This document shows, piece by piece, positions 2,709 through 62,341 of a stretch of 64,000 nt of DNA (positions within the stretch are counted from its first letter, which is position 1; the number at the start of each line of letters is the position of its first letter). The notes below the pieces were generated by a model. It saw only the letters and a list, made by a program, of their open reading frames with translations. It ran no database searches and was not told the origin of the DNA. The stretch comes from Fistulifera solaris (lineage: Eukaryota), in the NCBI GenBank assembly GCA_030295235.1, contig AP026127.1, positions 248,001-312,000 of the forward strand, given 5' to 3'. Both the position numbers and the translations under genes were made by a program.

Positions 2709-3840
2709 AACAAGACAAGAAAAGCCATATATTCTGTAGTATCATTGCCATACTTGTAACCGGCCTATCGTAGCTTCACACGGATTTTCTTGTACTCTCT
2801 TGATCATGCACTTTTCTTCAGCATGCCTCATCAGCTTAGTTCAAGAAAAGTGGACGAAGATAGGTTCATTGCAGGAGATTATGCTGTGAAGAAGGAAATG
2901 ATCGCGTGTCAATGTTTTCTCCACTGAGTTCCTTCCTCGAGAATAGGGAGTCGAAAGCATCCCTAAAGATCATTTCAAGTCAACCAGCACCAAGTCTTGC
3001 CTCGAGATTTAAGCGAAACTTGCAAATCGAAAATTAGAGCAGCAACTTGCAAGGTTGGTGTAACTGAACGCTCCTGTACACGAGAAGGATTTTGTGACCA
3101 AACCCCTCTTACAAGCATTGTCTGCTCGCGCATCTCGCAATCGTAAAGACTTCTGAACCATGGTACAACTTCGAAAGTAGGTAAAATCGGTCGCTAAAGA
3201 GTCCGCTTAATTAACTCGGAAATGTTGTCGTCGTGGAGCACAAAATAACTTTCATCAACATACACCAGTTGATTATGATCGACAAGTCGAAAGGCGACTT
3301 CAAAATCGGTTGTCGATACCCTTAGACCTGCATGTGTAGATTCGGAACCAGATCTTGTCCATCGGCGTTTGAATCTTTTCCGTAATGGGTCTCTGTTTGT
3401 CTTTCGAAAGTACGAGACGTAGATGGAGCTACAAAGACGACCAAGGCGATCCAGCGAGCGTAGTAGAACGATGCTGCGGATTGATTAGTCGTCGTCTTTC
3501 ATATCGTTTACCAGGTATCCATGTAAATTGTTTAAGAGCGGTAGATTGATGTTCAGCAATGGCATTTGTTATTGTCAGTCTGAACGGCAACATCGCTCTC
3601 CGTACAATACCGAGTACTGGCTACAAATCAGATCATAGTCGATTAAATTAGAATATCTAGCAAACATTCTCCCTTTAACTATAATATGTCGAAATGTCGT
3701 ACAATGAACCAGGCCTCTATGTATCATTAATTTCGCACGCTGGCCGACATGCTTTGGCGAGGATCGATTTTTGGACCCTCTTTCTCTTTTTTCTCACAAA
3801 TCTACATCGAAACACAGAGTTTAAGCAAACAATTTCAACA

Positions 3841-4596
3841 ATGAAACGGCCACTTGTGTCTCCTGAAGAATGGGCAAAGTTTGTGAGGTTGCTCTACTCC
3901 GACCGAACTGGTGAACACATGGAAGACACCATCCGCAGGTTTTTGAAAGATCACCCCGACTGCGTCCATCGGACTTCCATGCAGTTTACTCCCTTATTTT
4001 ATGCGTGTCAATCCAACAACATTTGTCTGGCCAAGATTCTGTTAGAACTCGGTGCGAATGTCAACGAGGGATGGGTGGATTTCGATGGGGGCTCTCCACT
4101 ATTCGCGGCCGCGGAATCTGGAAATGTGGACGCTGTACAATTACTGATTGATCACGGAGTGAGCATTCACTCGATCATGAACTACGTTATACGTAACGAA
4201 AAAGTATTTGAATGCGGTACGACGGCACTCAAGACGCTGTTGAACGTCGCATCGGATGTAGATCTCGAGACTACATGGCACGATGCGGAGGGTGAAATGG
4301 TCCGAGGATCTTACTTACATCTTGCTTTAGCGGAAGGAAGTAGCTTATCCGCCAACCTACTGTTAGAGTGTGGTAAATTTGATGTGAATGCACTGGACTC
4401 TAGAGGAAACTCTGCTCTGCTTTTGGCTATATCAAACAAACTGTGCAACGGTCTTGTAAAAGACATATTACGAACCACGACGGATGTTGAATTCGCCAAC
4501 AGTTATGGTGAATATCCGCTCTCACTTGCCACTAAGAGAGCCGACATAAATGTAATCTTTGAGCTACTATCGGCACATCCTCATTTAATCTGTTGA
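3841..4596 (+). CDS. Ankyrin-repeat protein (local family member 1)
   Basis: Ankyrin motifs TPLFYAC..LLELGANVN, SPLFAAAESGNVDAVQLLIDHG and YLHLALAEG. Start taken at MKRPL by comparison with the 41725 paralog. Confidence 0.85.
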   Translation: MKRPLVSPEEWAKFVRLLYSDRTGEHMEDTIRRFLKDHPDCVHRTSMQFTPLFYACQSNNICLAKILLELGANVNEGWVDFDGGSPLFAAAESGNVDAVQLLIDHGVSIHSIMNYVIRNEKVFECGTTALKTLLNVASDVDLETTWHDAEGEMVRGSYLHLALAEGSSLSANLLLECGKFDVNALDSRGNSALLLAISNKLCNGLVKDILRTTTDVEFANSYGEYPLSLATKRADINVIFELLSAHPHLIC

Positions 4597-16596: not shown

Positions 16597-18138
16597 ATGG
16601 CGCGACCTGATCAAGATAAACCGAAACCGAACATTGTCGACCAAGTCCGGGAAACAGTTTCGCATGTATTTGGCGGCGACAACCAAGGCGATAAAACCGT
16701 AACGGAAAGGACGGACGAGACCAAGGGAATGATTCAGGACAAGATGCCTTCCGGCACCACCACCACCAACGAGAAGACGATTGGCGACGCTACCCGCGAG
16801 AAGTACGAAGAACTGATGCAGAACGTTCAGAGCACATTGTCCGGCAACGCCAACAAGGATCTGGGTGACAAGACAGCGGACAAGTACCACGAGGGAAAGG
16901 GTGCGATCAAGGATACGTTCTCCTCGGGCGACAACAAAGATCTCGGCGACAAGGCTGCGGACAAGTACCATGAGGGCAAAGGAGCCGTTCAGGATATGGG
17001 CGACAAAGCCGCGGACAAGTACCAGCAAGGGAAAGAATCCATTCAGGATACGTACCAGCAAGGGAAAGACAAGTTCTCTGGTGAGAAGGACCTCGGCGAC
17101 AAGGCCGCTGACAAGTATCACCAGGGAAAAGGCTTCATCAAGGATACCTTACTCTCTGACGAAGGCAAGGATCTAGGTGACCGCACCGCCGACGCCTACC
17201 ACGGCACCAAGGGCATGGCCCAAGCCGCGGGTGACAAGATCGTTGGTGTCAAGGACTCGATCCAGGACAAGTTGCACCAGGGCATCGAAACGGTCCAAGA
17301 CACGCTGCACCAGAGCAAAGAGGCCGTTCAGGATCGATTGCATCAGGGCAAAGAGACAATTGTTGACAAGTACCAGCAGAGTAAAGAAGCTGCCGAGCAG
17401 AAGTACGAGCAGAGCAAGCAAGCCGCCCAGCAGACTTACGAGCAGGGAAAGGAAAAGGCTGTGCAAGGCAAAGACATGGCACAGGACAAGTTGCAACAAG
17501 GCAAAGAGATGGCCCAAGACAGGATGCAGCAAGGCAAGGAAATGGCTCAGGGCACCTACGAGCAGGGCAAGGACATGGCGCAACAGGGCAAAGAGACGGC
17601 TCAGGACAAGATGCAACAGGGAAAGGAAATGGCCCAAGACAAGTGGCAGCAGGGCAAGGACATGGCGCAACAGGGCAAAGAGACGGCTCAGGACAAGATG
17701 CAACAGGGAAAGGAAATGACCCAGGACAAGTGGCAGCAGGGCAAGGACATGGCGCAACAGGGCAAAGAGACGGCGCAGGACAAGATGCAGCAGGGAAAGG
17801 AGACTGCTCAGGACAAGTTTCAACAAGGAAAAGAAACTACCAAGGACAAGATGTCTTCCATGGGCGATAAAGCCAACCAGATGGGCGACAAAGCCAAGGA
17901 TACGTACCAGCAGGGCAAAGAAAAGACCCAGAGCAAGTTTTCGTCTCCTTCCGGCGGCTCCAGCGGCAGTCAGGATAAAGTGCCCGAAACGAGCGGAGTG
18001 ACCGTCAAGGTTATTGCCAATGACGACACGAATTTGGGTGACCAAGCCGGTGCGAAATTCAACGAGCTGAAAGGCAAGACCCACGCCGAGGACAAATTCT
18101 CTACTTACAAGGGAAACAATCCCGACAAGAAGTATTAA
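16597..18138 (+). CDS. Large group-3-LEA-like hydrophilin, MARPDQD family
   Basis: 513-aa ORF with 11-mer repeats (AQDKMQQGKEM type) and KDLGDKAADKYHxGK repeats. Confidence 0.85.
   Translation: MARPDQDKPKPNIVDQVRETVSHVFGGDNQGDKTVTERTDETKGMIQDKMPSGTTTTNEKTIGDATREKYEELMQNVQSTLSGNANKDLGDKTADKYHEGKGAIKDTFSSGDNKDLGDKAADKYHEGKGAVQDMGDKAADKYQQGKESIQDTYQQGKDKFSGEKDLGDKAADKYHQGKGFIKDTLLSDEGKDLGDRTADAYHGTKGMAQAAGDKIVGVKDSIQDKLHQGIETVQDTLHQSKEAVQDRLHQGKETIVDKYQQSKEAAEQKYEQSKQAAQQTYEQGKEKAVQGKDMAQDKLQQGKEMAQDRMQQGKEMAQGTYEQGKDMAQQGKETAQDKMQQGKEMAQDKWQQGKDMAQQGKETAQDKMQQGKEMTQDKWQQGKDMAQQGKETAQDKMQQGKETAQDKFQQGKETTKDKMSSMGDKANQMGDKAKDTYQQGKEKTQSKFSSPSGGSSGSQDKVPETSGVTVKVIANDDTNLGDQAGAKFNELKGKTHAEDKFSTYKGNNPDKKY
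17561..17820 (+). repeat. 87-bp coding tandem repeat, 3 copies
   Basis: Units start at 17561, 17648 and 17735 and encode QQGKDMAQQGKETAQDKMQQGKEMAQDKW (7+11+11 aa). Confidence 0.9.
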
Positions 18139-18866: not shown

Positions 18867-21040
18867 ATGAGGCGTTTATTGCGGTTCGGCTTCTGCCCGC
18901 TCGTGCTTTTCTTCTTGCTGACAGCCGTAAGCTGCTTCAGGGAAATACGTTATAGGCAACATCGAATCATCGAATTGAAATTAGCCGAACAGCACGAAGC
19001 TTCATCCGCAGCAACTGCGGCGATTCCATCTGATACCATCGTGACTCCAAAAGAATCCGAGGAAACAACTATCGAAAAAGGAACAAAGAGTCCGAAACAA
19101 CAACCAAAAACATTGATTTCCGATCATCCGATACTATCATTAGACCCTTCGAAAGGCTACAATGTCGTCTTGACCCATTCGACGGCCGATTTTGATTCAC
19201 TCGCTTCCGCGGTCGGCTTGGCCAAATTATGGTCGGCCGAAGCCGTCCCTTCTTCCTCGGACGTCAAATCCTTTGACAGTGCCAGTCATGTACCGACGTA
19301 CGTAGTGCTACCCCGTGGTGCTCATCCGTCCGTGCAACGTTTCCTGTCGCTGCACAAGCATTTGTTTCCCATTCGATCCTTGAAAAGTCTCCCATCTCCC
19401 GCCGGGCGTCTCAATCGGTTGGCTCTTGTGGATGCTCAACGCAAAGAACGATTAATACCGGCCGAAGGCTTGCTGGAACACGCCAAGCGTATTACGGTCG
19501 TCGATCATCATGTCGATCAAGATTCGGATATTGCGGCCGATGATTATGTCGTCGACAAGGTTGGGAGTGTGACCACGTTAATAGCCGAACGCTTGCAACA
19601 GCAAGAATTATCACTGACGGAAGCGGAAGCGACACTGCTGGCTTTGGGGATTCATGCCGATACGGGCAATTTGTGTTTTGACAATACGACACCCCGAGAC
19701 GCCTACGCATTGGCCTGGTGTTTGTCGCAGGGCGCGAGTCAAACCGCGATTGCCGAACACGTCAATTCGCCGCTCAGTCCTGAACAACAGAGTGTTTTGA
19801 CGCGGGCGTTGTTACACGTCAATACGACCGTCGTTAATGGGGTCACGATTTCGACGGTCCTGTTGCAGGCGGATGCTTTCATACAGGGCTTGGCAGCGGT
19901 CACACAAGATGCGTTGGAATTGAGCAGCAGTGATATTTTCTTGATGGGATTGGTGTACGGAACCTCGAAAAGAAAAGATGACTTTACTGTTTCAGTACAG
20001 GCTCTCCTGCCTTCCTTATTACCACTCAATAAAGATGTCTCTGAAACGGAACAGTTCTTACGTGATGCTTTTCGTGAGCGAGATTTAGATCAGTCGGGAC
20101 ATCTAGATGCTACAGAAATAAGTCGCGCTTTGAATCAAGCTGGAGTAGTGACCACTCCCTCACAAATTCAAAGGCTGGTCCATGCTATGGATGCAGACGG
20201 TGATGGTCAAGTAGATTGTCAGGAATTTGTGGATTTTGTCATGGCACAACAACAAAAGCAACAGCAGCAGACCAAGAAGAATCACATGATTGTAATTGGT
20301 CGTGTGAAAGCAAGTGCCAATTTGAAAGACGTAAAGTTAAATCATTTGTTAGAACCGTTTGGAGGAGGCGGACACCCGAAAGCAGCGTCGGCCACCGTGC
20401 GGGTCTTGGAGGAAACGCAGGCCGCCGAAATTTTGCAATCGCTCGTCGACCAACTGGTGGAACACGCCTTACCCGAACAAGCCACAGTAGCTGATTTCAT
20501 GATGAGTCCCGTCTTGTCGGTGACCCCCGACATGACTGAAGTACAAGTAGAACGCCTCTTTACACGCTTGGATGTCCGGGCCCTGCCGGTGGTCAATCCG
20601 ACCGACAATACGGTCATTGGATTAGTCACTTACAAAGAAGTGGCTGCCGCGAAGCAACGATTGTGGAATAAAGAACAGAAGCGTCAGCAACAAGAACAAC
20701 AGGCGTTGGAAAAGGTGCACCACTTCCCGTGGCGGACGAAAAGCAATTGCACACGACCGTCAAAGCGTGGATGAAACAACATTTTCAGACCGTCGAAGTG
20801 AGTGCGACGATGCAAGATGTGGAATTGATTTTGTTGGAGAACGATATTGGCTGTATACCGGTGGTAGAAACGGGAACTCACACGTTGGTAGGAATGGTGA
20901 CACGAACAGATTTGTTACGACAACATCGCTACTATCCGTCTCTCCCGTATCACAACAAAGGCATGGCCGATTCGATCGCCGCTCGGAAACCCATGATTGA
21001 ATTGCGGAAACGTCTGAAGCGATTTGATAACGAGTTATAG
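18867..21040 (+). CDS. DHH/DHHA1 phosphoesterase with inserted EF-hand pair and C-terminal CBS pair; probably plastid-targeted
   Basis: Motifs THSTADFDS, VDHH, GIHADTG and GGGGHPKAAS. EF loops DLDQSGHLDATE and DADGDGQVDCQE. CBS motifs VRALPVV and IGCIPVV..GMVTRTDL. Signal peptide ending VSC-F. 1-bp frameshift in the A-run near 20710. Confidence 0.85.
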
Positions 21041-25653: not shown

Positions 25654-27676
25654 ATGAGTGACAAAGAAAGTGAAAACATTGGCGAGGAGTCGGTCACCGA
25701 ATGCTGCAAAGCAGATGTGCCGACGGTGTCGGTCGTGGACGTTGAAATTCGTCAAAGAACGGAAACTGTTACTTTCCCCGCACGCGGAAGGAAAAGGGTT
25801 TCGACCCTCATGTCAAATACAAGCACTGAAAAGAGGGTCACCAGAGCGTCTCGTCGCTTGAAGGGGAACGAACCCTTGGAAGTGTCGGCTGATCGGAACG
25901 AAGAGGGAACTGGATTAGTTGACGACAGAAACGAGAAAGAAAAAAGCAGGCGCGCCCGACAGCGGGATAGACAGGGTTACGGAAGAGGTTTCCCGTGACG
26001 ACTCCTTGAAAAAGATTGCCGAAGAAGTGCCAGAATATGATTCTCAAAAGAAAAAAGCCAACACTCTTGCTCACGGGCTCGCAGGAATTACAGGAGAAGC
26101 GTCGAATGACAAGCGGGATGAGGAAACCGAAGATAGGTCAAATAAAGAGCCTGAAAAAGTGACCGCAGAAATGTCTGGTTACGAGAGCGATAAGGAAGCC
26201 GAAGAAATGGACATTGACGAGCCCGATAAGGAAACTGAAAACTTAGGTCAAGAGTCGGACGACTCGGAAAAGAGCAGTGAAGAAAAAGCCACAGAGAAGA
26301 CCAATCAGGCGAACGCAAAAGCAAATGAAAAGGTCTCGGATAAAGAGCCTGTCGAAATGGATTCCGAACAGCCGGACAATGGGATCGAAGGCATGTCGGA
26401 CGCAGAGAAGCCGTCAGGAACAACGGAGCACGAGAGTGCGAGCGGAGCAGCAACCATGGCAAATAACGAGCCGGAACAGGAAACGGGTAAGATACCGGGC
26501 AATGAGCCAGAAAAGAGGACTGAAGGAACATCTGTAAATAACAGCGAAGAGAGTGAAGTGTCAAAGAATGAGACCGAGCAAGAAAACGAAGTCTCGAGAA
26601 AGGATTTTCAAGCCAAAAATAGCAGTAGCGAAGAGAGTGAAGTGTCAGAGAATGAGATCGAACAGGGAAAAGAAGTCTCAAGAAAGGATTCTGAAGCCAA
26701 GGATACACAAAAGTCGGATAGCGAGAGCGAAGACCCGTCAGAAATTGAAGCTGAACAAGGAAAGGAAGCTTCCAGTCCCGAAAAGGCAAATTCAAAGCCT
26801 TCGGACGACAAAGACCCAATGCCAGATGATGAGGTTGATGAAGGATATAAGGTGTCAGAAAAGGGACTGGAACAGGGGACTACCGACGCACCAGAAGACA
26901 AGAATGAAGGCGCAGACACGTCTGATTACGAAAGCGCCAAGGAAACAGAGGAACTGTCCGACGAGGAGCCGGAGAAGACAGGAGAAGAGTCTGGTGAGAA
27001 GAGCGGAAAGGGAGCTGAAGAAATGTCAGAGAAAGCAAACGAACAAGAGAAGGAACTGTCAGACGAGGAGCGGGAGAAGAAAGCAGAAGAGTCTGGAGAG
27101 AAAAGCGGAACCGGAGAAATGTCGGAGAGAGAAAGTGAACAAGAGAATGACCCAATGGACGAGCAAGAGAGCAAGAACGAAGCAAGATCTGAAGACAAAA
27201 GCGCCAAGAAGTCACCCAGCTTCCCCAAGACCGAAAAGGGCACCGCGTCCAAAAAGGCCGCGAAAGTCACACCCGAAAGGCGTCCGTCGTTTGGAAAGCA
27301 CCGTGGATACGGAAAAGGTAAGGGAGGACGCGGAGCCCGTACCTCAATTAGTAGTTCGACCCGAGCCGGCTTGCAGTTCCCCGTCGGTCGCATCGGACGG
27401 TACTTGCGGGAGGGCAAATACGCGTCGCGCCTGGGCGCCGGGGCCCCGGTCTATCTCGCAGCCGTCTTGGAATACTTGTGCGCCGAAATCTTGGAATTGG
27501 CGGGGAATGCTTGTCGTGACAATAAAAAGACCCGAATCGCTCCCCGTCATATCACCTTAGCCGTGAAGAACGATGAAGAACTGAATGATTTGTTGGGCGA
27601 TGTGACGATTGCGTCGGGTGGCGTTTTGCCCAATATCAACCCTGTATTGTTACCCAAGAAGACTGTCATTTCGTAG
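25654..27676 (+). CDS. H2A: Histone H2A with very long acidic N-terminal extension (about 670 aa total)
   Basis: C-terminal canonical H2A fold [11 protein letters not shown]...[20 protein letters not shown]...[12 protein letters not shown], in frame with more than 450 codons of E/S/K/D-rich sequence. One frameshift in the A-run near 25940 links ORF 25654. Confidence 0.8.
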
Positions 27677-36720: not shown

Positions 36721-37232
36721 TAATCATAAGTTTTCGATGATTCATTCACAATTCGTTCAAGACGACTCATCATACACTTACGGTACAGAACCGGTGCGGT
36801 ACCGGATCGTCATAGAGAGTTTGTGCGTCCAAAGACTGTCATCGACTCTTCTTCCCACATGGAACTGTCATAATTATGGAAGATGGAAGCTATCGCATTA
36901 TAAAGATTGAAAGAGTAGACCCCATAAACTTCTACACGCTTCCTATCGCTGGCCGTTAACAATATCAATTTCATTGTACAAAGCCTTGAAATGTTGTGTT
37001 TTCTTATCGTTCTTTTCTTATGCGTCCGGTACCGGTTGAAAATGTTCGTTCTACACCTAAATCCAGAGTACAAAAATTTGTATTCGCCTCATTGTACTGT
37101 TTATTCTCCGTTCCTTTTCAACGCATGATGACTTTTCTGTCGAAAAAACGTTTTCGTTCCAAACGCAACATTTTTTCGTTCAGTCGAAGAAAGGTTGCAA
37201 GCCATGAGTTCAATCGATTGACAAATGACACC

Positions 37233-37952
37233 ATGACAACGTCAATGCCAACTTTCAGCGATAATACTCACAAAGTTAAGACCACCGGCGATTCAGTATC
37301 TGACGAACGCTATGGCTCGATGTTTGACACGCCTCTGTACAGAGCAGCTGTGTCTGGAGATTGCAACTTGGTAAAGGCTCTTATCGAGGCAGGCCACGAT
37401 GTGAATCGTAGCATTCGCAGCCATACTGCTATAGAATTGGTTATCAATAACGAGTTACGATACGGAACCAGACCGCTGCAAATTCTCCTCGGAGCCGGAG
37501 CTAATCCAAATCTATGGGTTCGCTGGAAGGATTATTTTGGAAATATACATCAAGGCCCGTGCCTTCACCTAGCTCTTGCAACAGGAAGAATCGCGTCCGC
37601 CAAGATTCTATTGTCTTCAGCCTCGACGAATTTACATGCATGTGACTCTGCAGGTCGAACCGCACTCTACATTTCACTAGGAAACGAAGAAACTCACGGA
37701 ACGCTTGACGCCATGATCCGAGAAATGTCCATTTTGAATTTTATTGCGTCTAGCCGAGGACTACCAGCCCCAGCTGCTGCATGGAACCAGATGCCGACCA
37801 TGTTTTATACACTTCTAAGCAACGGTATTTGTCCGTTTCACAAAGAGGCGCACGAAGAAAGTGTCTTTGAGAAAGCTTGCCAAGCGGGTCAGGTTTCTTA
37901 CGTATTTGAGATAATACGCAACTATCCTCAAATTTGTATCCGGATTACTTGA
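37233..37952 (+). CDS. Ankyrin-repeat protein (local family member 2)
   Basis: TPLYRAAVSGDCNLVKALIEAGHDVN, LLGAGANPN and CLHLALATG. Start codon uncertain. Confidence 0.8.
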   Translation: MTTSMPTFSDNTHKVKTTGDSVSDERYGSMFDTPLYRAAVSGDCNLVKALIEAGHDVNRSIRSHTAIELVINNELRYGTRPLQILLGAGANPNLWVRWKDYFGNIHQGPCLHLALATGRIASAKILLSSASTNLHACDSAGRTALYISLGNEETHGTLDAMIREMSILNFIASSRGLPAPAAAWNQMPTMFYTLLSNGICPFHKEAHEESVFEKACQAGQVSYVFEIIRNYPQICIRIT

Positions 37953-49161: not shown

Positions 49162-50683
49162 CTAATGACTGGGAATCAGAGAGAAGATTTGTCGGGCCAA
49201 ATTGGTCAGGGGTTCTCGCGACAACCATTGCGGATGATGCTCCGTTTGTTGAAGAACCGCAGCCACTTCGGCATTTTGTAATCGCAAAGCCCACTGTAAG
49301 CTGGTGTAACCATTGACTGCCTCCACATCCTTGGCGCCGTGACGCAGCAAAATTTGTACGGTGGACGGATTGTTGGAGCCCGCTGCGAAATGAAGGGCAC
49401 TCCAGCCGTTCACGTCCCTCTGATTCACATCCGCCATGCCACCATCTCCACTGGCGGTATCATCTACACCACGACAGAGAAACTCGAGAACTTGAAGAGA
49501 CCCGTGGAACGCGCTAGCGTGCAAGGGGCAGGTCTGTGTCCCATCGGAGCCCACATGAAACTTGTCGATGGGGACACATTGTTGTTGTACCAGCAGCTTG
49601 ACCGTCTCTAACATATCATCGCTGGCGCATGCATCGATTAAAAGCGTTGATAGTTGATTTTGAATGTGTTCCGAGTACAAAGAAAATTTTTCGGCGCGTC
49701 GAGCAGTGATAATTTCGGCCACAACACTTCGCGAACTCGCTAGCGCCTTGCGAAATGCTCCTACACATCCAGACGGTACTTGTTTTGGTATTTGCGACAC
49801 GCTGGATGCCTCCTCCGTCCCCTGAAACCTTGCATTGGCTTTATAAGCTTCGTAGACTTTGGCTGCTGACATGCTTTGCATACTGTGTGCCAGAGCTTCC
49901 ATGCGTTCGAGCATGGAGCGTTTTTCCGTTTCGGATACCATGGCAGCTCCCATTAAACTTCCCACTACACCCAATCGTAATATAATGTGAGAGAAGTCCG
50001 CGGCTGGAATGGAGTGTTCGGTCATCAACGACGCGGCGCCGCCGAGCAATGTGACCAAAAGAGCGGCACGAGCGGCGAGAGCCGAGCGATGGGGTGGGTG
50101 ATGTACATGATTTTTGATCCACTTTCTCAGCATCGTGAGAGAGAGGGGAGGATCTCGTAAAGATGTATTCGAACATAGGTACTCTTGGAGAATGCATTTT
50201 AATCGGGACCCATCCAAGGAAGCCAAGCGGGCCACAATCTCCAAGCCGTGTGCGGAAGGAACATCCTGCAGTGAAGCTCGTTGTAACTGGTGCTGTAAGA
50301 AATAAAAGCACTCGTAATTGGAAGTCTTTGACGTTTCGGAAAAGGCCGCCAGATCCGGTAAATCCAGATAGCTCAATACATGCATCATCACGTCGTTGTA
50401 AAGGATTTCGTTCGCCGACGATGACGCTTCTTCTTCGGTGTGCTCATCCAGCAACGACAACAAATCATTCACACTGTCTTTCGCCGCATCCGAGGCGGCG
50501 ACCGAAAAAGTAACAAGAGGAAATTTTGACCAAAGAAGTGTTAATACTCGTAGTTAGCGTTGCTTCTTCCGTGACATCGAATTCTACAGAGGAGGATGAT
50601 TCGTTCGAATCGTTTTCCGGTAGCAGCTCTGTGTATTGTTCCCAGCCTTCATTCGCTATCAAATTATCATGACTATTAGACAT
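49162..50683 (-). CDS. F-box-like + ankyrin-repeat protein
   Basis: LYNDVMMHVLSYLDLPDLAAFSETSK (F-box-like). Ankyrin repeats CPLHASA, SALHFAA and TSLQWAL. 5' ORF 50465-50683 probably joined through a frameshift; start uncertain. Confidence 0.75.
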
Positions 50684-51195: not shown

Positions 51196-51361
51196 AAGAC
51201 ATCGTCTCGAACGAAGACTTCGTCTCCCAATGGGAGACTTCGTCTTCGCTACTGGAGACTTCGTCTTCGCTATAGGAGACTTCGTCTTCGCTATGGGAGA
51301 CTTCGTCTTCGCTATGGGAGACTTCGTCTTCCAATGGGAGACTTCGTCTTCGTCTTCGTCT
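51196..51361. repeat. Minisatellite of GGAGACTTCGTCT(T)C, 20-21-bp units (left array)
   Basis: About 8 units of the atgggagacttcgtcttcgct type. Confidence 0.9.
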
Positions 51362-51896: not shown

Positions 51897-52046
51897 GAAG
51901 ACTTCGTCTCCCAATGGGAGACTTCGTCTCTAAATGGGAGACTTCGTCTCTAAACGGGAGACTTCGTCTCCTAAACGGGAGACTTCGTCTCCTAAACGGG
52001 AAACTTCGTCTTCCTATGGGAGACTTCGTCTCCTTTTATGGGAGAC
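51897..52046. repeat. Minisatellite of GGGAGACTTCGTCTC, 20-21-bp units (right array)
   Basis: About 7 units in the same orientation as the left array. Confidence 0.9.
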
Positions 52047-52104: not shown

Positions 52105-52221
52105 TTAAAACGTTTAAGTAAGTAGAGTCACTGGACAACCGAAGTATAATGCCCGATAGTAAGTTAAAACGTTTAAGTAAGTAGAGTCACTGGACAACCG
52201 AAGTATAATGCCCGATAGTAA
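52105..52221. repeat. 59-bp tandem duplication
   Basis: ttaaaacgtttaagtaagtagagtcactggacaaccgaagtataatgcccgatagtaa at 52105 and 52164. Confidence 0.95.
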
Positions 52222-53146: not shown

Positions 53147-54807
53147 TTAAAGTCCGAAAGCACCCATACCTTCCTTCTGTTCCTTGAGGAAAGCTTCGTA
53201 AAAGGTAAAGATAATGGTGACCGCCAAAAGGATACCCGTTCCGGTACCAATGGCTCCCATAAAGTCGGCAATGACCGAAAGAGCGCCAATGCACATACCA
53301 CCAAAGGCGGCCGCCGTGGGGATGTAGCGGTTCAACACATGGATCAAAGCAGAATCGCGGTGACCTTTCATGACCATCTGGTTGTCACGCAATTGCTTGG
53401 CGACGTCGCGGGCCGAGGCTCCCGACACTTCAATCCAAGTTTTGGAGAAGAGTGCGCAGGCCGTCAAAATGAACGTCAAATAAAAGACGGCATGGAACGG
53501 GTCATAGATGATTTCGGCCAGGGATTGTGGGGGTGAAATGTAGTACGCAATACCACCGACGGGGATCTTTTGTCCCGGAGATCCTTCGACTTCTTGCCAT
53601 TTTCCCAACAAACGCACCAACACGTTCGTGGGCGCGCGGTTGTAAAGAAGTTGCGAAACAAAGTAGAGATTGGACACCAATGCCGTTTGTAGAATGATGG
53701 GCATGTTGGATGTGTAAAAGAGCTTGATGGGGTAGTTTCCTTCCTGGCCACGGTATTTCTGGTACTTGACAGGCAAGTTGACTCTCCATCCTTGAAAGTA
53801 AATGACAATGACAAAGACGAGGACTGTAGCCAAAAGATTGGTCAAGTTGGGCAAGTTCTGACGATACAATGCTTCCTGCAAGGCTTGGACCTTGTTGCTG
53901 CGCGTAATCATTAAATGAAAGAGAGCCACAATGGCACCTTCAAACTCGGTGCCACGACCCGTATTGATCGTGGTGGGAGAAAAGGCCTTCCAGATAATGG
54001 TTTCACAAATGTTGGTAGCAATAAAGAGCGAAATACCGCTGCCGAGTCCGTACCCTTTCTGCAACAATTCATCGAGTGTCAAAACGATAAGACCAGCACA
54101 AAAAAGTTGCGCAATGATCAAAAGAGCATTACCCGCTCCAATCGATCCCAAATCACCGTACATGCCCGAAACAACATACGCAATGGCTTCTCCGACCGTA
54201 ATGAGAATACCAAACAATTTTTGGGCACCGGAAAACAGGGCCCGATCTTCCTTGACATTGTAATCGACTTCAATGATGCGAGAACCGGCCAAAAGTTGCA
54301 TAACCAAGCCGGATGTGACAATTGGACTGATACCGAGTTCCATGAGAGTCCCACGATTCGAGGCCATAATGACACGCATCCAATAAAAGGGATCCGAGGA
54401 TTTGGCGCTCTGGACACCGTAGATGGGGATTTGACAGCACACCAAGAAGATGAAAAGTGTGATTGTCGTCCATAAGAGCTTTTCACGGAAAGGAATCTGA
54501 CGAAAGGAGGAAAAGTGTGTGTAAGACGATTGAAATGCGTACAAAAGGAAATGCCGCACACGTCTCGGAAGAATTCAAGCAAACGTGGTATGCTGCATAT
54601 CCACCGCAAACACCTTTATTCAACCCGTATCTACAGAATGAATAGCTTAAAGGGATAAAAAACGATCGGCATACAACAGGCGTCGAAACGAAACAAAGAC
54701 TGTCATCGGATGGGTCATTTTCACAAATCATTGCTCACCTTACGATCCGGACTGGCGACCTCCGGGAGGACGCACATTACGGGACGAATTAAATGAAGGA
54801 ATCTCAT
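53147..54807 (-). CDS. SEC61A: Protein translocon subunit Sec61 alpha
   Basis: Exon 1 [23 protein letters not shown], then intron 54497-54738, then IPFREK...[16 protein letters not shown]...[13 protein letters not shown]. Confidence 0.97.
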
Positions 54808-59983: not shown

Positions 59984-60146
59984 TGAGCTCCTCTAACCCA
60001 GTTGAAATTTTTACTTACGAGTGTCTATGATTTCTCGGTCTCTAAAAATTAGAAGTAGTATCATGGGCATAAATCAAATTATTACATTCAGATTAAATCA
60101 CAAAAGTGTAACCATAACACCTCTGTAGCTCCGTTAGATGGATGCC

Positions 60147-61046
60147 TTACTCTTGGATATCCTCTTCAACAATTTCTTCGGGTTCTTCAGCAACAAGAGC
60201 ACGGTCCTTGCTCTTGCTGGACTCCTCAGGCTCGTCGTGGCCGTGTTCCTTACCACTTAGTGCGCGGCTGAAGAGGGCACGGTCCTTGCTCTTGCTGGAC
60301 TCCTCGGGCTCGTCATGGCCGTGTTCCTTGCCACTAAGTCCTCGGCTGAAGAGGGCACGGTCCTTGCTCTTGCTGGACTCCTCAGGCTCGTCGTGGCCGT
60401 GTTCCTTGCCGCTGAGGCCGCGGCTGAAGAGGGCACGGTCCTTGCTCTTGCTGGACTCCTCAGGCTCGTCGTGGCCGTGTTCCTTGCCGCTGAGGCCGCG
60501 GCTGAAGAGGGCACGGTCCTTGCTCTTGCTGGACTCCTCAGGCTCGTCGTGGCCGTGTTCCTTGCCGCTGAGGCCGCGGCTGAAGAGGGCGCGGTCCTTG
60601 CTCTTGCTGGACTCCTCAGGCTCGTCGTGGCCGTGTTCCTTGCCGCTGAGGCCACGGCTGAAGAGGGCGCGGTCCTTGCTCTTGCTGGACTCCTCAGGCT
60701 CGTCGTGGCCGTGTTCCTTGCCACTAAGTCCTCGGCTGAAGAGGGCACGGTCCTTGCTCTTGCTGGACTCCTCAGGCTCGTCGTGGCCGTGTTCCTTGCC
60801 GCTGAGGCCGCGGCTGAAGAGGGCACGGTCCTTGCTCTTGCTGGATTCCTCAGGCTCATCATGGCCGTGTTCCTTGCCACTAAGTCCGCGGTCGAAAAGT
60901 CCAGCACCAGGGGCAACACCACTTGCGGCGGCGAACATGAAGGTTCCAGCAATAATGGCTCCGTAAATAGCGCGCTTGCGGAACTTGCTCTCGGTGGCAA
61001 CGGCTCCGTCAATGACGGTGTTCATCTCGACATCAAAGTTAGACAT
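60147..61046 (-). CDS. Repetitive peptide-precursor protein with RXL motifs (silaffin/silacidin-like architecture)
   Basis: Signal-anchor RKR-AIYGAIIAGTFMFAAASGVA, then 9 x SGKEHGHDEPEESSKSKD separated by RAL-FS-RGL. Differences between units are almost all synonymous in this frame. Confidence 0.8.
   Translation of the reverse strand: MSNFDVEMNTVIDGAVATESKFRKRAIYGAIIAGTFMFAAASGVAPGAGLFDRGLSGKEHGHDEPEESSKSKDRALFSRGLSGKEHGHDEPEESSKSKDRALFSRGLSGKEHGHDEPEESSKSKDRALFSRGLSGKEHGHDEPEESSKSKDRALFSRGLSGKEHGHDEPEESSKSKDRALFSRGLSGKEHGHDEPEESSKSKDRALFSRGLSGKEHGHDEPEESSKSKDRALFSRGLSGKEHGHDEPEESSKSKDRALFSRALSGKEHGHDEPEESSKSKDRALVAEEPEEIVEEDIQE
60195..60890 (-). repeat. 78-bp coding tandem repeat, 9 copies
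   Basis: 26-codon unit with two synonymous variants, CGA GGA CTT AGT and CGC GGC CTC AGC. Confidence 0.95.
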
Positions 61047-62341
61047 GGTTTGAAAAGGCTTTGAAGATAGGCTGAAGTATGAATCGCTGGATATGATTTT
61101 TTGTCAGTTTGTGAGCGCGAAAGTGATGAAGCACGCAAAGATCTGCTTTCTCGAAGCACCGACGATCGGCACTGGCACTTCGCAAAGGATGACCTGGTGA
61201 GATTGAGGCGATACAAAAGTGTACCCTCATACCCAGTTTCAACCGACAGCCCTTTTTTACGCTTGCCTCTTTCGGCGGTGGTTACATAGGAAAGGTCTTC
61301 GTTGGCGAGGTACACAAAATTAGCCGCAATCCTTAAATACGTGTGTCACTTAGAGAATTTGGAAGAAAAGTCTCGTGTCAACGGACAATCGTGCGCCTTT
61401 GAGTGGTAGTTCAACGTCAAACGAACTGTAAGAAAAGCGGTACAAATTAGGCGGGAGAAGAGAGCAAGACGTTGAGAACTTTCCAGGGAAATAATCTGAA
61501 GTCCGAAGTCCTTTCCCACTGTCGGCTATGAAGTACTAATTAATTTTGTGTTTTTGCTTATTGTGATCTACTCCGGCGTACTCTGTTATAAATCAGATTT
61601 TGAAACATCCGTTGGGGGTTTTTACAGTCTAATTGACAGTAAGCAGCAAATCGTTATGCGTCTTCCCGCACAAGGTCAAGGATACTACAGTAGGAGCGGA
61701 GAGACGTTACCTGGTATGATGTCAAACAGTAATGATGACGACAAGCTAAGGTTAGGCAAGGTCAATTTGTCACGTCAACTTTCCTTGCAGGAACGAAAAA
61801 CGAAGAGAGTGCGACAATATTAAATTATTATGCTATTTTCCAAGAATAAGTATTTGTAAAGAGTAGTTCGTAGCTGGTCACTCCTTTCAAATGCGATGTC
61901 TGGCACGTAACGTCAACAAAGTAGCGTAAAACCTGGTGCTAGAGTGTCGAAAGAAGCCTTGTGAAAGGATGCTGCGTTCGCATAGAGCACTTTAAAATGT
62001 TTTTGACCGATGAGAACGCTCGTTTTATGTTGATTCGTCTCTCAGACCACACTTATGCAGGATCTAAGGTGCCTCAAATTACGGAGTAATCACCTAGATA
62101 CATACTGTAGTAAGCGCTTGTGCGACACGCGATACGCAGTCAGAATAATGGCGTTTGGTCTGTGCAGGACACTCTAGAATGCAAGCGCGTGGGCATGAAT
62201 TGCATCAAGTTAGATGTGAAAAATATAATTTACAAGCTTCGTGACCATTAACGTGTTTCGAATGTATTCTGTCATAATGCCCGACCAGTCCGGCTTTTTT
62301 CGACCTGTATCCAGCCATTTTCATTCCTTACATTCGACTCT

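Follow-up and report, generated by a model that had tools for sequence, protein, structure and literature searches.

A diatom repeat gene encoding nine identical histidine-containing peptides between RXL motifs: a candidate silaffin/silacidin-like precursor

The stretch of DNA analyzed here, 64 kb in full and referred to as the window, carries on its minus strand a repeat gene (60147..61046) that encodes a protein of 299 residues. The protein has a hydrophobic N-terminal segment followed by nine identical copies of an 18-residue peptide (18-mer), each copy set between RXL motifs (Arg, any residue, Leu). Features of the locus, named with the evidence for each, are organized as follows; positions invariant in alignment A1 are those shared by the window protein and three homologs (P0001, P0002, and P0007).

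60147..61046, minus strand: complete single-exon coding sequence (CDS) of 299 codons with its TAA stop at 60147–60149 (homologs P0001, P0002, and P0007; synonymous variants)
60972..61046, minus strand: hydrophilic N-region, residues 1–25, ending in the invariant E19..F22-R23-x-R25 (A1) and forming part of the predicted AlphaFold2 (AF2) helix at residues 3–41
60915..60971, minus strand: hydrophobic segment, residues 26–44, a putative signal-peptide core or signal anchor (Kyte-Doolittle hydropathy; invariant A40-x-S42; predicted local distance difference test, pLDDT, of 72–75 at residues 21–40)
60882..60914, minus strand: spacer, residues 45–55, ending in the first L-F-D-R-G-L (L50, F51, R53, and L55 invariant in A1)
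60195..60896, minus strand: nine tandem units of 78 nt or 26 residues, each F-[SD]-R-[GA]-L, the 18-mer, and R-A-L (Tandem Repeats Finder; motif scan)
60828..60881, minus strand: first copy of the 18-mer, residues 56–73, with further copies each 78 nt and the ninth at 60204–60257
60150..60194, minus strand: 15-residue acidic tail that closes the protein behind the last R-A-L (P0001 and P0002 likewise have RxL with an acidic tail behind it)
60142..60966, plus strand: antisense open reading frame (ORF) of 274 residues opened by the repeat and judged noncoding (17 of 22 variants synonymous; homology is to the minus-strand product)

The repeat is regular at the levels of both DNA and protein. In the ORF list for the minus strand, the start codon (ATG, 61046–61044) is the first Met codon after an in-frame stop located 57 nt upstream. 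The 18-mer, SGKEHGHDEPEESSKSKD, occurs in nine identical copies that begin at residues 56, 82, and so on to 264 with a constant spacing of 26 residues. F-[DS]-R-G-L stands before each copy (F-S-R-A-L before the ninth) and R-A-L after it; behind the last R-A-L, the protein ends in the tail VAEEPEEIVEEDIQE. Tandem Repeats Finder identified a single array (60199–60891; period of 78, 8.9 copies, 95% matches, zero indels, and a score of 1218), by far the strongest among the arrays of the window. A scan for the unit motif found nine sites in the window, all within the gene, and no paralog of the gene elsewhere in the 64 kb. A preliminary description made from the sequence had reported the nine identical peptides, the KFRKR motif with its hydrophobic stretch, the bracketing RXL motifs, and the acidic tail, and the ORF translation and repeat analysis agree with it in every detail.

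Variation among units is concentrated at sites that leave the peptide unchanged. Across the 78 columns of the unit, 15 vary and 12 of these are third codon positions (P = 2.9e-4 for at least 12 of 15), all 12 being synonymous. The three nonsynonymous columns are all in linkers of the first and ninth units, and the six variable columns within the 18-mer are without exception synonymous, so the units do differ almost only at synonymous sites, as had been described. We rejected this unit-to-unit pattern as a test of strand. An antisense frame with coincident wobble positions (60142–60966, plus strand) is nearly as invariant, with two variable residue columns versus one in the minus frame, and the test therefore cannot choose between strands.

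Variants between sequencing runs, obtained by comparing public contigs with the window, are more informative as to strand. In the CDS, 25 variants are listed, of which 23 are at third positions (P = 1.5e-9 for the bias). Read in the minus frame, 24 leave the protein unchanged, and the gene is under purifying selection. Some of those counted in the repeat part may be contigs placed on a neighboring unit. All nine variants in the unique N-terminal part are synonymous, including three located beyond the antisense ORF, and within that ORF only 17 of 22 are synonymous in its own frame. All listed indels fall in the flanks, outside of the CDS. The strand is settled as minus because of these variants and because the homologs share the nonrepeat N-terminus of the minus-strand product.

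The same data bear on whether the locus is a gene at all, rather than a minisatellite with several frames open by chance, or a region in which the antisense ORF is the real one. Four long ORFs overlap the array, the antisense wobble frame is almost as invariant as the minus frame, codon usage does not favor the minus frame, and the exact protein is missing from a collection of 15 billion proteins. Conversely, the 55 unique residues with which the minus-strand product begins are matched by the homologs, the proportions of synonymous variants (24 of 25 versus 17 of 22) and the three variants beyond the antisense ORF point to the minus frame, and the array lacks indels while its flanks have them. 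We consider the noncoding and antisense alternatives hardly credible and the repeat gene to be, almost certainly, a real protein-coding gene.

Codon usage was tried as a further discriminator and set aside. Log-odds relative to 12 Pfam-supported ORFs of the window were −0.10 for the repeat gene, −0.01 and −0.05 for antisense, and −0.03 to 0.19 for the references, and thus do not discriminate. The GC content of third codon positions is 0.74 in the repeat gene versus a mean of 0.51 in the same 12 ORFs, which could reflect either a codon bias that comes with high expression or conversion driven by the repeats.

Contigs of four public runs (X1 to X4) cover parts of the locus. Near-identical sequence is present in a wetland metagenome (X1) and in a freshwater metatranscriptome (X3, RNA-Seq). 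In X3, 11 contigs lie on the CDS, eight of them at least 99% alike, and in X4, a small run presumed to be RNA, 26 do so. Contigs carry no information on the strand or level of RNA, and together these provide a weak hint of transcription. Coverage by X3 and X4 ends inside the CDS and leaves flanks 59990–60173 and 61002–61350 uncovered, X1 and X2 cover the flanks, and no inference on transcript ends or level was drawn from this or from the high summed word depth in X4. Upstream of the gene, at 61100–61185, one X2 contig has 89 other letters in place of 84 nt along with several flank variants. This replacement points to a divergent promoter haplotype or a strain difference, with the CDS changing only synonymously.

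On sequence comparison, the repeat gene belongs to a small family and is not an orphan. An exhaustive phmmer search over 1.84 billion representative proteins returned 17 matches at E ≤ 1e-3, and all 17 were inspected. Three are true relatives, P0001 (120 aa, E of 1e-16), P0002 (150 aa, 8.7e-11), and P0007 (101 aa, 3.9e-7), the last with a sequence that ends within a repeat; the other 14 are unrelated repeat or low-complexity proteins, and no named silacidin is among the 17. The three relatives share with the window protein its nonrepeat N-terminus (the N-terminal 55 residues) and its module grammar. Other searches did not enlarge the family. A profile search with A1 found no members beyond the three, a word-indexed homolog search had none of 7,999 scored candidates at E ≤ 0.01, the ESM Atlas gave no usable match to either the whole protein or residues 1–82, and in two scans of metagenome contigs with the family alignment, none of the 49 pattern matches in each was confirmed. 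The window protein itself is absent from the 15-billion-protein collection, and each of the three homologs is a singleton from a metagenome contig of 643–2182 nt.

The host is a diatom, though not Phaeodactylum tricornutum itself, as indicated by the ORF for Sec61alpha in the window (53147–54379, minus strand), the best named matches of which are to diatoms: P. tricornutum (95%), Conticribra weissflogii (91%), Entomoneis paludosa (86%), and Epithemia (86%), along with MMETSP entries with names beginning in "Lepto" and "Rhizosol". The repeat gene is best explained as a lineage-restricted diatom gene.

Across the family, the layout of the protein is conserved. In all three homologs, a long hydrophilic start leads to E..F-R-[KR]-R and a hydrophobic segment ending in A-x-S, followed by two to three modules. 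Modules open with [LM]-F-[SDN]-R-x-L-x-G-K..H-x-H, continue with S-K-S, and close in an acidic end of the G-G-D-D type. In each module of the window protein, x-G-K-x-H-x-H comes behind F-x-R-x-L, then an acidic core and S-K-S-K. Of the columns in A1, 20 are invariant, including E19, F22, R23, R25, A40, S42, L50, F51, R53, L55, G57, K58, and H62, then F77, R79, L81, K84, H86, and H88. The F-x-R-x-L motif is invariant at every unit boundary in the three homologs, and the sequence of the peptide between sites diverges strongly among them while the motif stays fixed. This modifies the preliminary description, in which the peptides were set between paired RXL motifs. Pairs are present in the window protein, but the first RXL of the pair is absent in P0001 and P0002 and retained only in P0007, making the second the only one conserved in the family. 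RxL and then an acidic tail come after the last peptide not only in the window protein but also in P0001 and P0002. All four family members share an invariant H-x-H motif (H62, H86, and H88), with constant spacing from the RxL site. His content rises to 8.7% in P0002 and 9.9% in P0007, and Lys content falls to 3.0% in P0007. By these comparisons, His is more conserved across the family than the silaffin-like Ser-Lys part.

The N-terminus is predicted to direct the protein into the secretory pathway. The Kyte-Doolittle maximum for a 19-residue span is 1.68, at residues 27–45 directly after KFRKR, and four basic residues precede the hydrophobic segment. Single-sequence AlphaFold2 models one helix, with nearly everything outside of it below a pLDDT of 50, and everything after residue ∼45 is predicted to be disordered. 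A Pfam match to PF24410 (wHTH-Hsp90_Na-associated) has a whole-protein E of 3.7e-8, with no single stretch passing and the best covering 14 residues (72–85) of a 55-position model; we regard it as spurious because its score is summed from repeat matches. Plastid targeting was also considered and dropped, as a Gly directly behind the putative A-x-S site and an acidic segment after it do not fit the plastid-targeting motif.

The preliminary description took the N-terminus for a signal anchor. The hydrophobic segment is there, but, given the conserved A-x-S behind its core, the N-terminus may instead be a cleavable signal peptide that carries a long N-region. Under the opposing explanation, the protein is an uncleaved, type II membrane-anchored, disordered protein in which RxL has a structural or sorting role and the repeats form a brush that serves as a hydration, pH-buffering, or surface coat. 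The hydrophobic segment could indeed span a membrane (19 residues at 1.68, within the helix at 3–41, and with four basic residues ahead of it), conservation of the N-region (E19, F22, R23, and R25) is unexpected if it is discarded with a signal peptide, and RXL cleavage in general is still to be proven according to the excerpted text of PMC5647440. However, the small-x-small A40-x-S42 behind the hydrophobic core resembles a signal-peptidase site, divergence of the peptides around an invariant F-x-R-x-L is the pattern expected of processing sites, and identical repeats kept through synonymous change are typical of polyprotein precursors. We consider an uncleaved anchor unlikely.

The number and arrangement of RXL motifs are consistent with processing. 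The window protein has 18 RXL motifs compared with a mean of 1.24 and a maximum of five in 2000 shuffles of the same protein, and its density of 6.0 per 100 aa compares with a median of 0.53 in the 49 window ORFs of at least 150 aa. One RXL is located 11–13 residues past A-x-S and two are at each unit boundary. Cuts after every RXL Leu are predicted to yield nine 21-residue peptides (21-mers), seven copies of FSRGL, one FSRAL, a 55-residue N-terminal piece, and the acidic tail. After residue 30, the protein has no dibasic pairs.

Multiple copies of a peptide behind a secretory leader are also a feature of signaling precursors. Fungal alpha-factor and other Kex2 precursors have a secretory leader and identical short peptide copies separated by dibasic (Lys-Arg) spacers; the window protein resembles them in leader and repeated copies but lacks dibasic spacers and uses F-x-R-x-L instead. 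By analogy with yeast alpha-factor and neuropeptides, the gene could encode a precursor of a secreted signaling or defense peptide, with nine copies raising the amount of a diffusible peptide. In line with this, identical copies are numerous and separated by processing motifs behind a leader, and a fast-evolving peptide is combined with a conserved processing site. Diatom pheromones are peptides, but those named in the excerpts of a 2025 review are small and cyclic with unusual residues rather than linear acidic 18-mers (PMC12352721). Moreover, Kex2-type sites are absent after residue 30, the disordered composition of Ser, Lys, Asp, Glu, and His is that of mineral- or metal-interacting peptides, and the Pfam scan of the window reveals no receptor or mating-type context. 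We view a signaling or defense role as quite improbable.

The closest parallels in layout are precursors of silica-forming peptides. Statements attributed to published work here and below are those of the excerpted text of each paper. The precursor of silaffin-1 peptides has 265 residues, beginning with a signal peptide, and its repeat units carry a C-terminal RRIL or RRNL that the mature peptides lack (PMC4557024). Repeats of frustulins, cingulins, and silacidins also end in RXL, a motif that a specific endopeptidase may recognize, and the silacidin precursor is highly repetitive and gives rise to phosphopeptides rich in Asp, Glu, and Ser, in which extensive Ser phosphorylation is needed for activity (PMC4557024). 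RXL is regarded as a protease recognition site, with the protease itself described as unidentified (PMC5501833, PMC5525289), and RXL sites have so far been reported only in biosilica-associated proteins (PMC5647440, as excerpted). With an N-terminal ER (endoplasmic reticulum)-type hydrophobic segment followed by identical short peptides ending in RXL, the window protein has the layout of silaffin-1 and silacidin precursors (PMC4557024), as had been proposed.

Comparisons with individual proteins show where the resemblance ends. Sil1p of Cylindrotheca fusiformis has an ER-targeting N-terminus, an RXL after the leader, and tandem Ser/Lys units ending in an R-x-L-type motif, and is similar in size (265 versus 299 aa). 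But units of Sil1p are polycationic Lys clusters, whereas those of the window protein have three Lys versus six acidic residues and two His, and the window protein uses a single-Arg RxL rather than RRxL, an extra conserved Phe, and a 25-residue N-region. The silacidin of Thalassiosira pseudonana is likewise a repetitive, lineage-restricted precursor with RXL at unit ends, reported to be processed into short acidic peptides rich in Asp, Glu, and Ser; in contrast to its purely acidic peptides, the window 18-mer has Lys and the invariant H-x-H and is zwitterionic. Silacidin homologs share 80–100% identity among centric diatoms, and the excerpted text reports none in P. tricornutum or Fragilariopsis cylindrus (PMC5649158). 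Neither the word-indexed nor the exhaustive phmmer search found sequence similarity of the window protein to Sil1p, and the phmmer search found none to silacidin.

Other silica-associated proteins share some of its elements. The SiMat7-like/Silicanin proteins and SAPs are membrane-associated proteins of the silica deposition pathway with RXL shortly after an ER-targeting sequence (PMC5501833, PMC5525289, PMC5647440), and the spacer at residues 45–55 is comparable to the "RXL domain" behind signal peptides of diatom silica proteins (PMC5525289, PMC5647440). They differ in being type I, with a signal peptide at the N-terminus and a transmembrane helix at the C-terminus, in having no more than one or two RXL, and in their lumenal domains, which are folded or rich in Ser; the only hydrophobic segment of the window protein is N-terminal, and it has RXL 18 times. 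Siliplant1 (Slp1) of sorghum, which precipitates silica, has repeat domains with His/Asp-rich and Lys-rich stretches, RXL, and predicted disorder (10.1101/518332). Slp1 is basic (pI of 9.28) with 20% Pro, 524 aa, and three RXL, whereas the window protein is acidic with 3.7% Pro. The two are not homologous, their lineages are unrelated, and only the co-occurrence of His/acidic residues, Lys, and RXL is common to both. Slp1, the paper on which also cites the sponge protein glassin, shows that chemistry combining His/Asp with Lys can act on silica (10.1101/518332).

Composition links the window protein to silaffins only in part. It has 15.7% Ser, 22.4% Asp plus Glu, 9.7% Lys, and 6.0% His, and 146 of 200 100-aa windows pass a screen for silaffin-like proteins that requires at least 18% Ser and at least 10% Lys per 100 aa (PMC3478156). 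Ser/Lys-rich repeat proteins are many in diatom genomes, one screen having found 89 in T. pseudonana (PMC3478156). The silaffin-like Ser/Lys character proposed earlier holds by this screen, but not in finer detail, as the protein has no pentalysine cluster, no KXXK in its repeats, and a peptide that is acidic (net charge of −2.9 at pH 7).

These and other features weigh against a silaffin/silacidin-like reading. At most two Lys occur per 14 residues, the only KXXK is in the N-region while repeats carry KXK, and the 18-mer is acidic rather than polycationic, yet has Lys and His and so is unlike silacidins. The N-region of 25 residues is of atypical length for a signal peptide, and the three homologs, being metagenome singletons, leave a distribution confined to silicifiers conjectural. 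To our knowledge, neither silaffins nor silacidins feature an invariant H-x-H, a motif characteristic of metal ligands. "All silaffins known to date" are stated to carry at least one pentalysine cluster, that is, five Lys in 12–14 residues (PMC9650480), and a processing role for RXL "remains to be proven" even in known cases (PMC5647440). The protein thus fails features stated for all known silaffins, because it lacks a pentalysine cluster and KXXK in the repeats and its peptide is acidic. It appears to work like a silaffin/silacidin precursor in layout, but should not be filed as either, given that pentalysine and polycationic features are missing and that homology to silacidin is lacking. 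Its extended and conserved F-x-R-x-L, its hydrophobic anchor or leader at the N- rather than the C-terminus with a conserved motif on the putative cytosolic side, and its His-containing zwitterionic peptide are best called new elements. The literature offered no match for this combination. The 18-mer string was not found, no diatom His-rich RXL repeat protein was found by title or abstract, supplementary tables being outside the scope of both searches, and a search on diatoms, histidine-rich proteins, and RXL turned up only malaria or oomycete export contexts.

The invariance of H-x-H across the family argues equally for metal binding. Lumenal or extracellular modules of His, Asp, and Glu, cleaved or not, could bind Zn, Cu, Ni, or Co for buffering, storage, detoxification, or cell-surface capture, without involvement of silica. 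The rise in His and fall in Lys among homologs, the acidic residues flanking His, and the wetland and freshwater sources of near-identical sequence, which are habitats with variable metal supply, are compatible with this possibility. The window peptide, however, has only two His per 18 residues and no Cys, and a metal-binding polymer needs neither a conserved RxL at every boundary nor nine identical copies. No metal-related gene adjoins the repeat gene in the Pfam scan of the window, and among the matches listed for literature on diatom histidine-rich proteins and zinc, none is of such a kind by title or abstract. We regard metal handling as the main rival explanation and assign it a rather small probability.

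We tentatively prefer, by analogy, to read the product as a secretory polyprotein from which cleavage at RXL would release silaffin/silacidin-like peptides, recognizing that steps of this chain differ in strength. The hydrophobic segment would take the chain into the ER with the repeats lumenal, as the basic residues before the segment imply, and the conserved A-x-S suggests cleavage by signal peptidase. Entry into the secretory pathway is very probable. In a late secretory compartment, a diatom endoprotease would cut after the Leu of F-x-R-x-L and, in the species of the window, also after that of R-A-L, releasing nine 21-mers, or 18-mers if the C-terminal RAL is trimmed as is RRIL in silaffin-1. 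Eight F-S-R-x-L pentapeptides and the acidic tail would also be freed. S1P-type (R-x-hydrophobic-x) and PEXEL-type proteases were considered for the enzyme, as analogies only. That RXL is processed is somewhat probable. In the most speculative step, peptides, possibly with phosphorylated Ser, would function in or at the silica wall as it forms, in the manner of silacidins or silaffins. The computed net charge of the 18-mer (three Lys, two His, six acidic residues, and no Cys) goes from −3.5 at pH 8 to −0.6 at pH 5, and this shift by its two His could make association with polyamines or silica dependent on pH. A role in silica or the cell wall is possible but open to considerable question. A bolder proposal, which we hold to be doubtful, is that the family represents a new chemical class of diatom biomineral peptides, in which ribosomal, RXL-released, His-switched zwitterions would flip their charge between an acidic deposition vesicle and the outside, and that the 18 sites with an invariant Phe at P5 (F-x-R-x-L) would provide the first extended specificity motif and a multisite substrate for the RXL endoprotease.

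The window is otherwise gene-dense and ordinarily eukaryotic. Pfam identified ankyrin proteins, an M3 peptidase, a COQ5-type methyltransferase, histone H2A, an ABC1 kinase, RING, DAO, Sec61alpha, and WD40, and an Rfam scan of the window found no RNA family. Three separate ankyrin-repeat ORFs are within the 64 kb (3694–4596, 37020–37952, and 49162–50388), and a 635-aa ORF (18867–20774, plus strand) has an unusual set of domains, namely DHH, a pair of EF-hands, DHHA1, and CBS.

Repeats occur at other places in the window. A 513-aa ORF (16597–18138, plus strand) has 33-nt repeats, corresponding to 11 residues, in arrays at 17368–17853, a weak match to LEA_4 (E of 7.9e-6, below the Pfam cut-off), and a regional AT skew of 0.37; from its sequence, its product looks like a group-3 LEA-like hydrophilic protein. 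The last ∼150 residues of a 501-aa ORF (26171–27676, plus strand) are histone H2A (PF00125 and PF16211), and upstream of these is a purine-rich extension of ∼350 residues with an 84-nt repeat (26543–26700) and an AT skew of 0.40. Either the H2A itself carries a long extension at its N-terminus, or the ORF runs through upstream sequence. Intergenic sequence beside the Sec61alpha gene has two 20–21-nt tandem arrays with a common core, AGACTTCGTCT, of 6.7 copies each and ∼550 nt apart, adjoined by a perfect 59-nt duplication (elements at 51215–51352, 51899–52034, and 52105–52221).

In the protein collections searched, the repeat gene and its relatives either lack a name or do not appear. A protein with 18 RXL and an F-x-R-x-L conserved across its family would be a convenient natural substrate for identifying the RXL protease and working out its specificity. 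If the wall does contain the peptides, pH-titratable His joins the peptide repertoire of diatoms, silica-linked His being so far confined, in the excerpted text, to sponge and grass proteins (10.1101/518332), and the 18-mer would provide biomimetic silica with a short tag that is genetically encoded and switchable by pH. Should the peptides instead bind metal or act as signals, the gene would be the first polyprotein-type peptide precursor of such a sort in diatoms.

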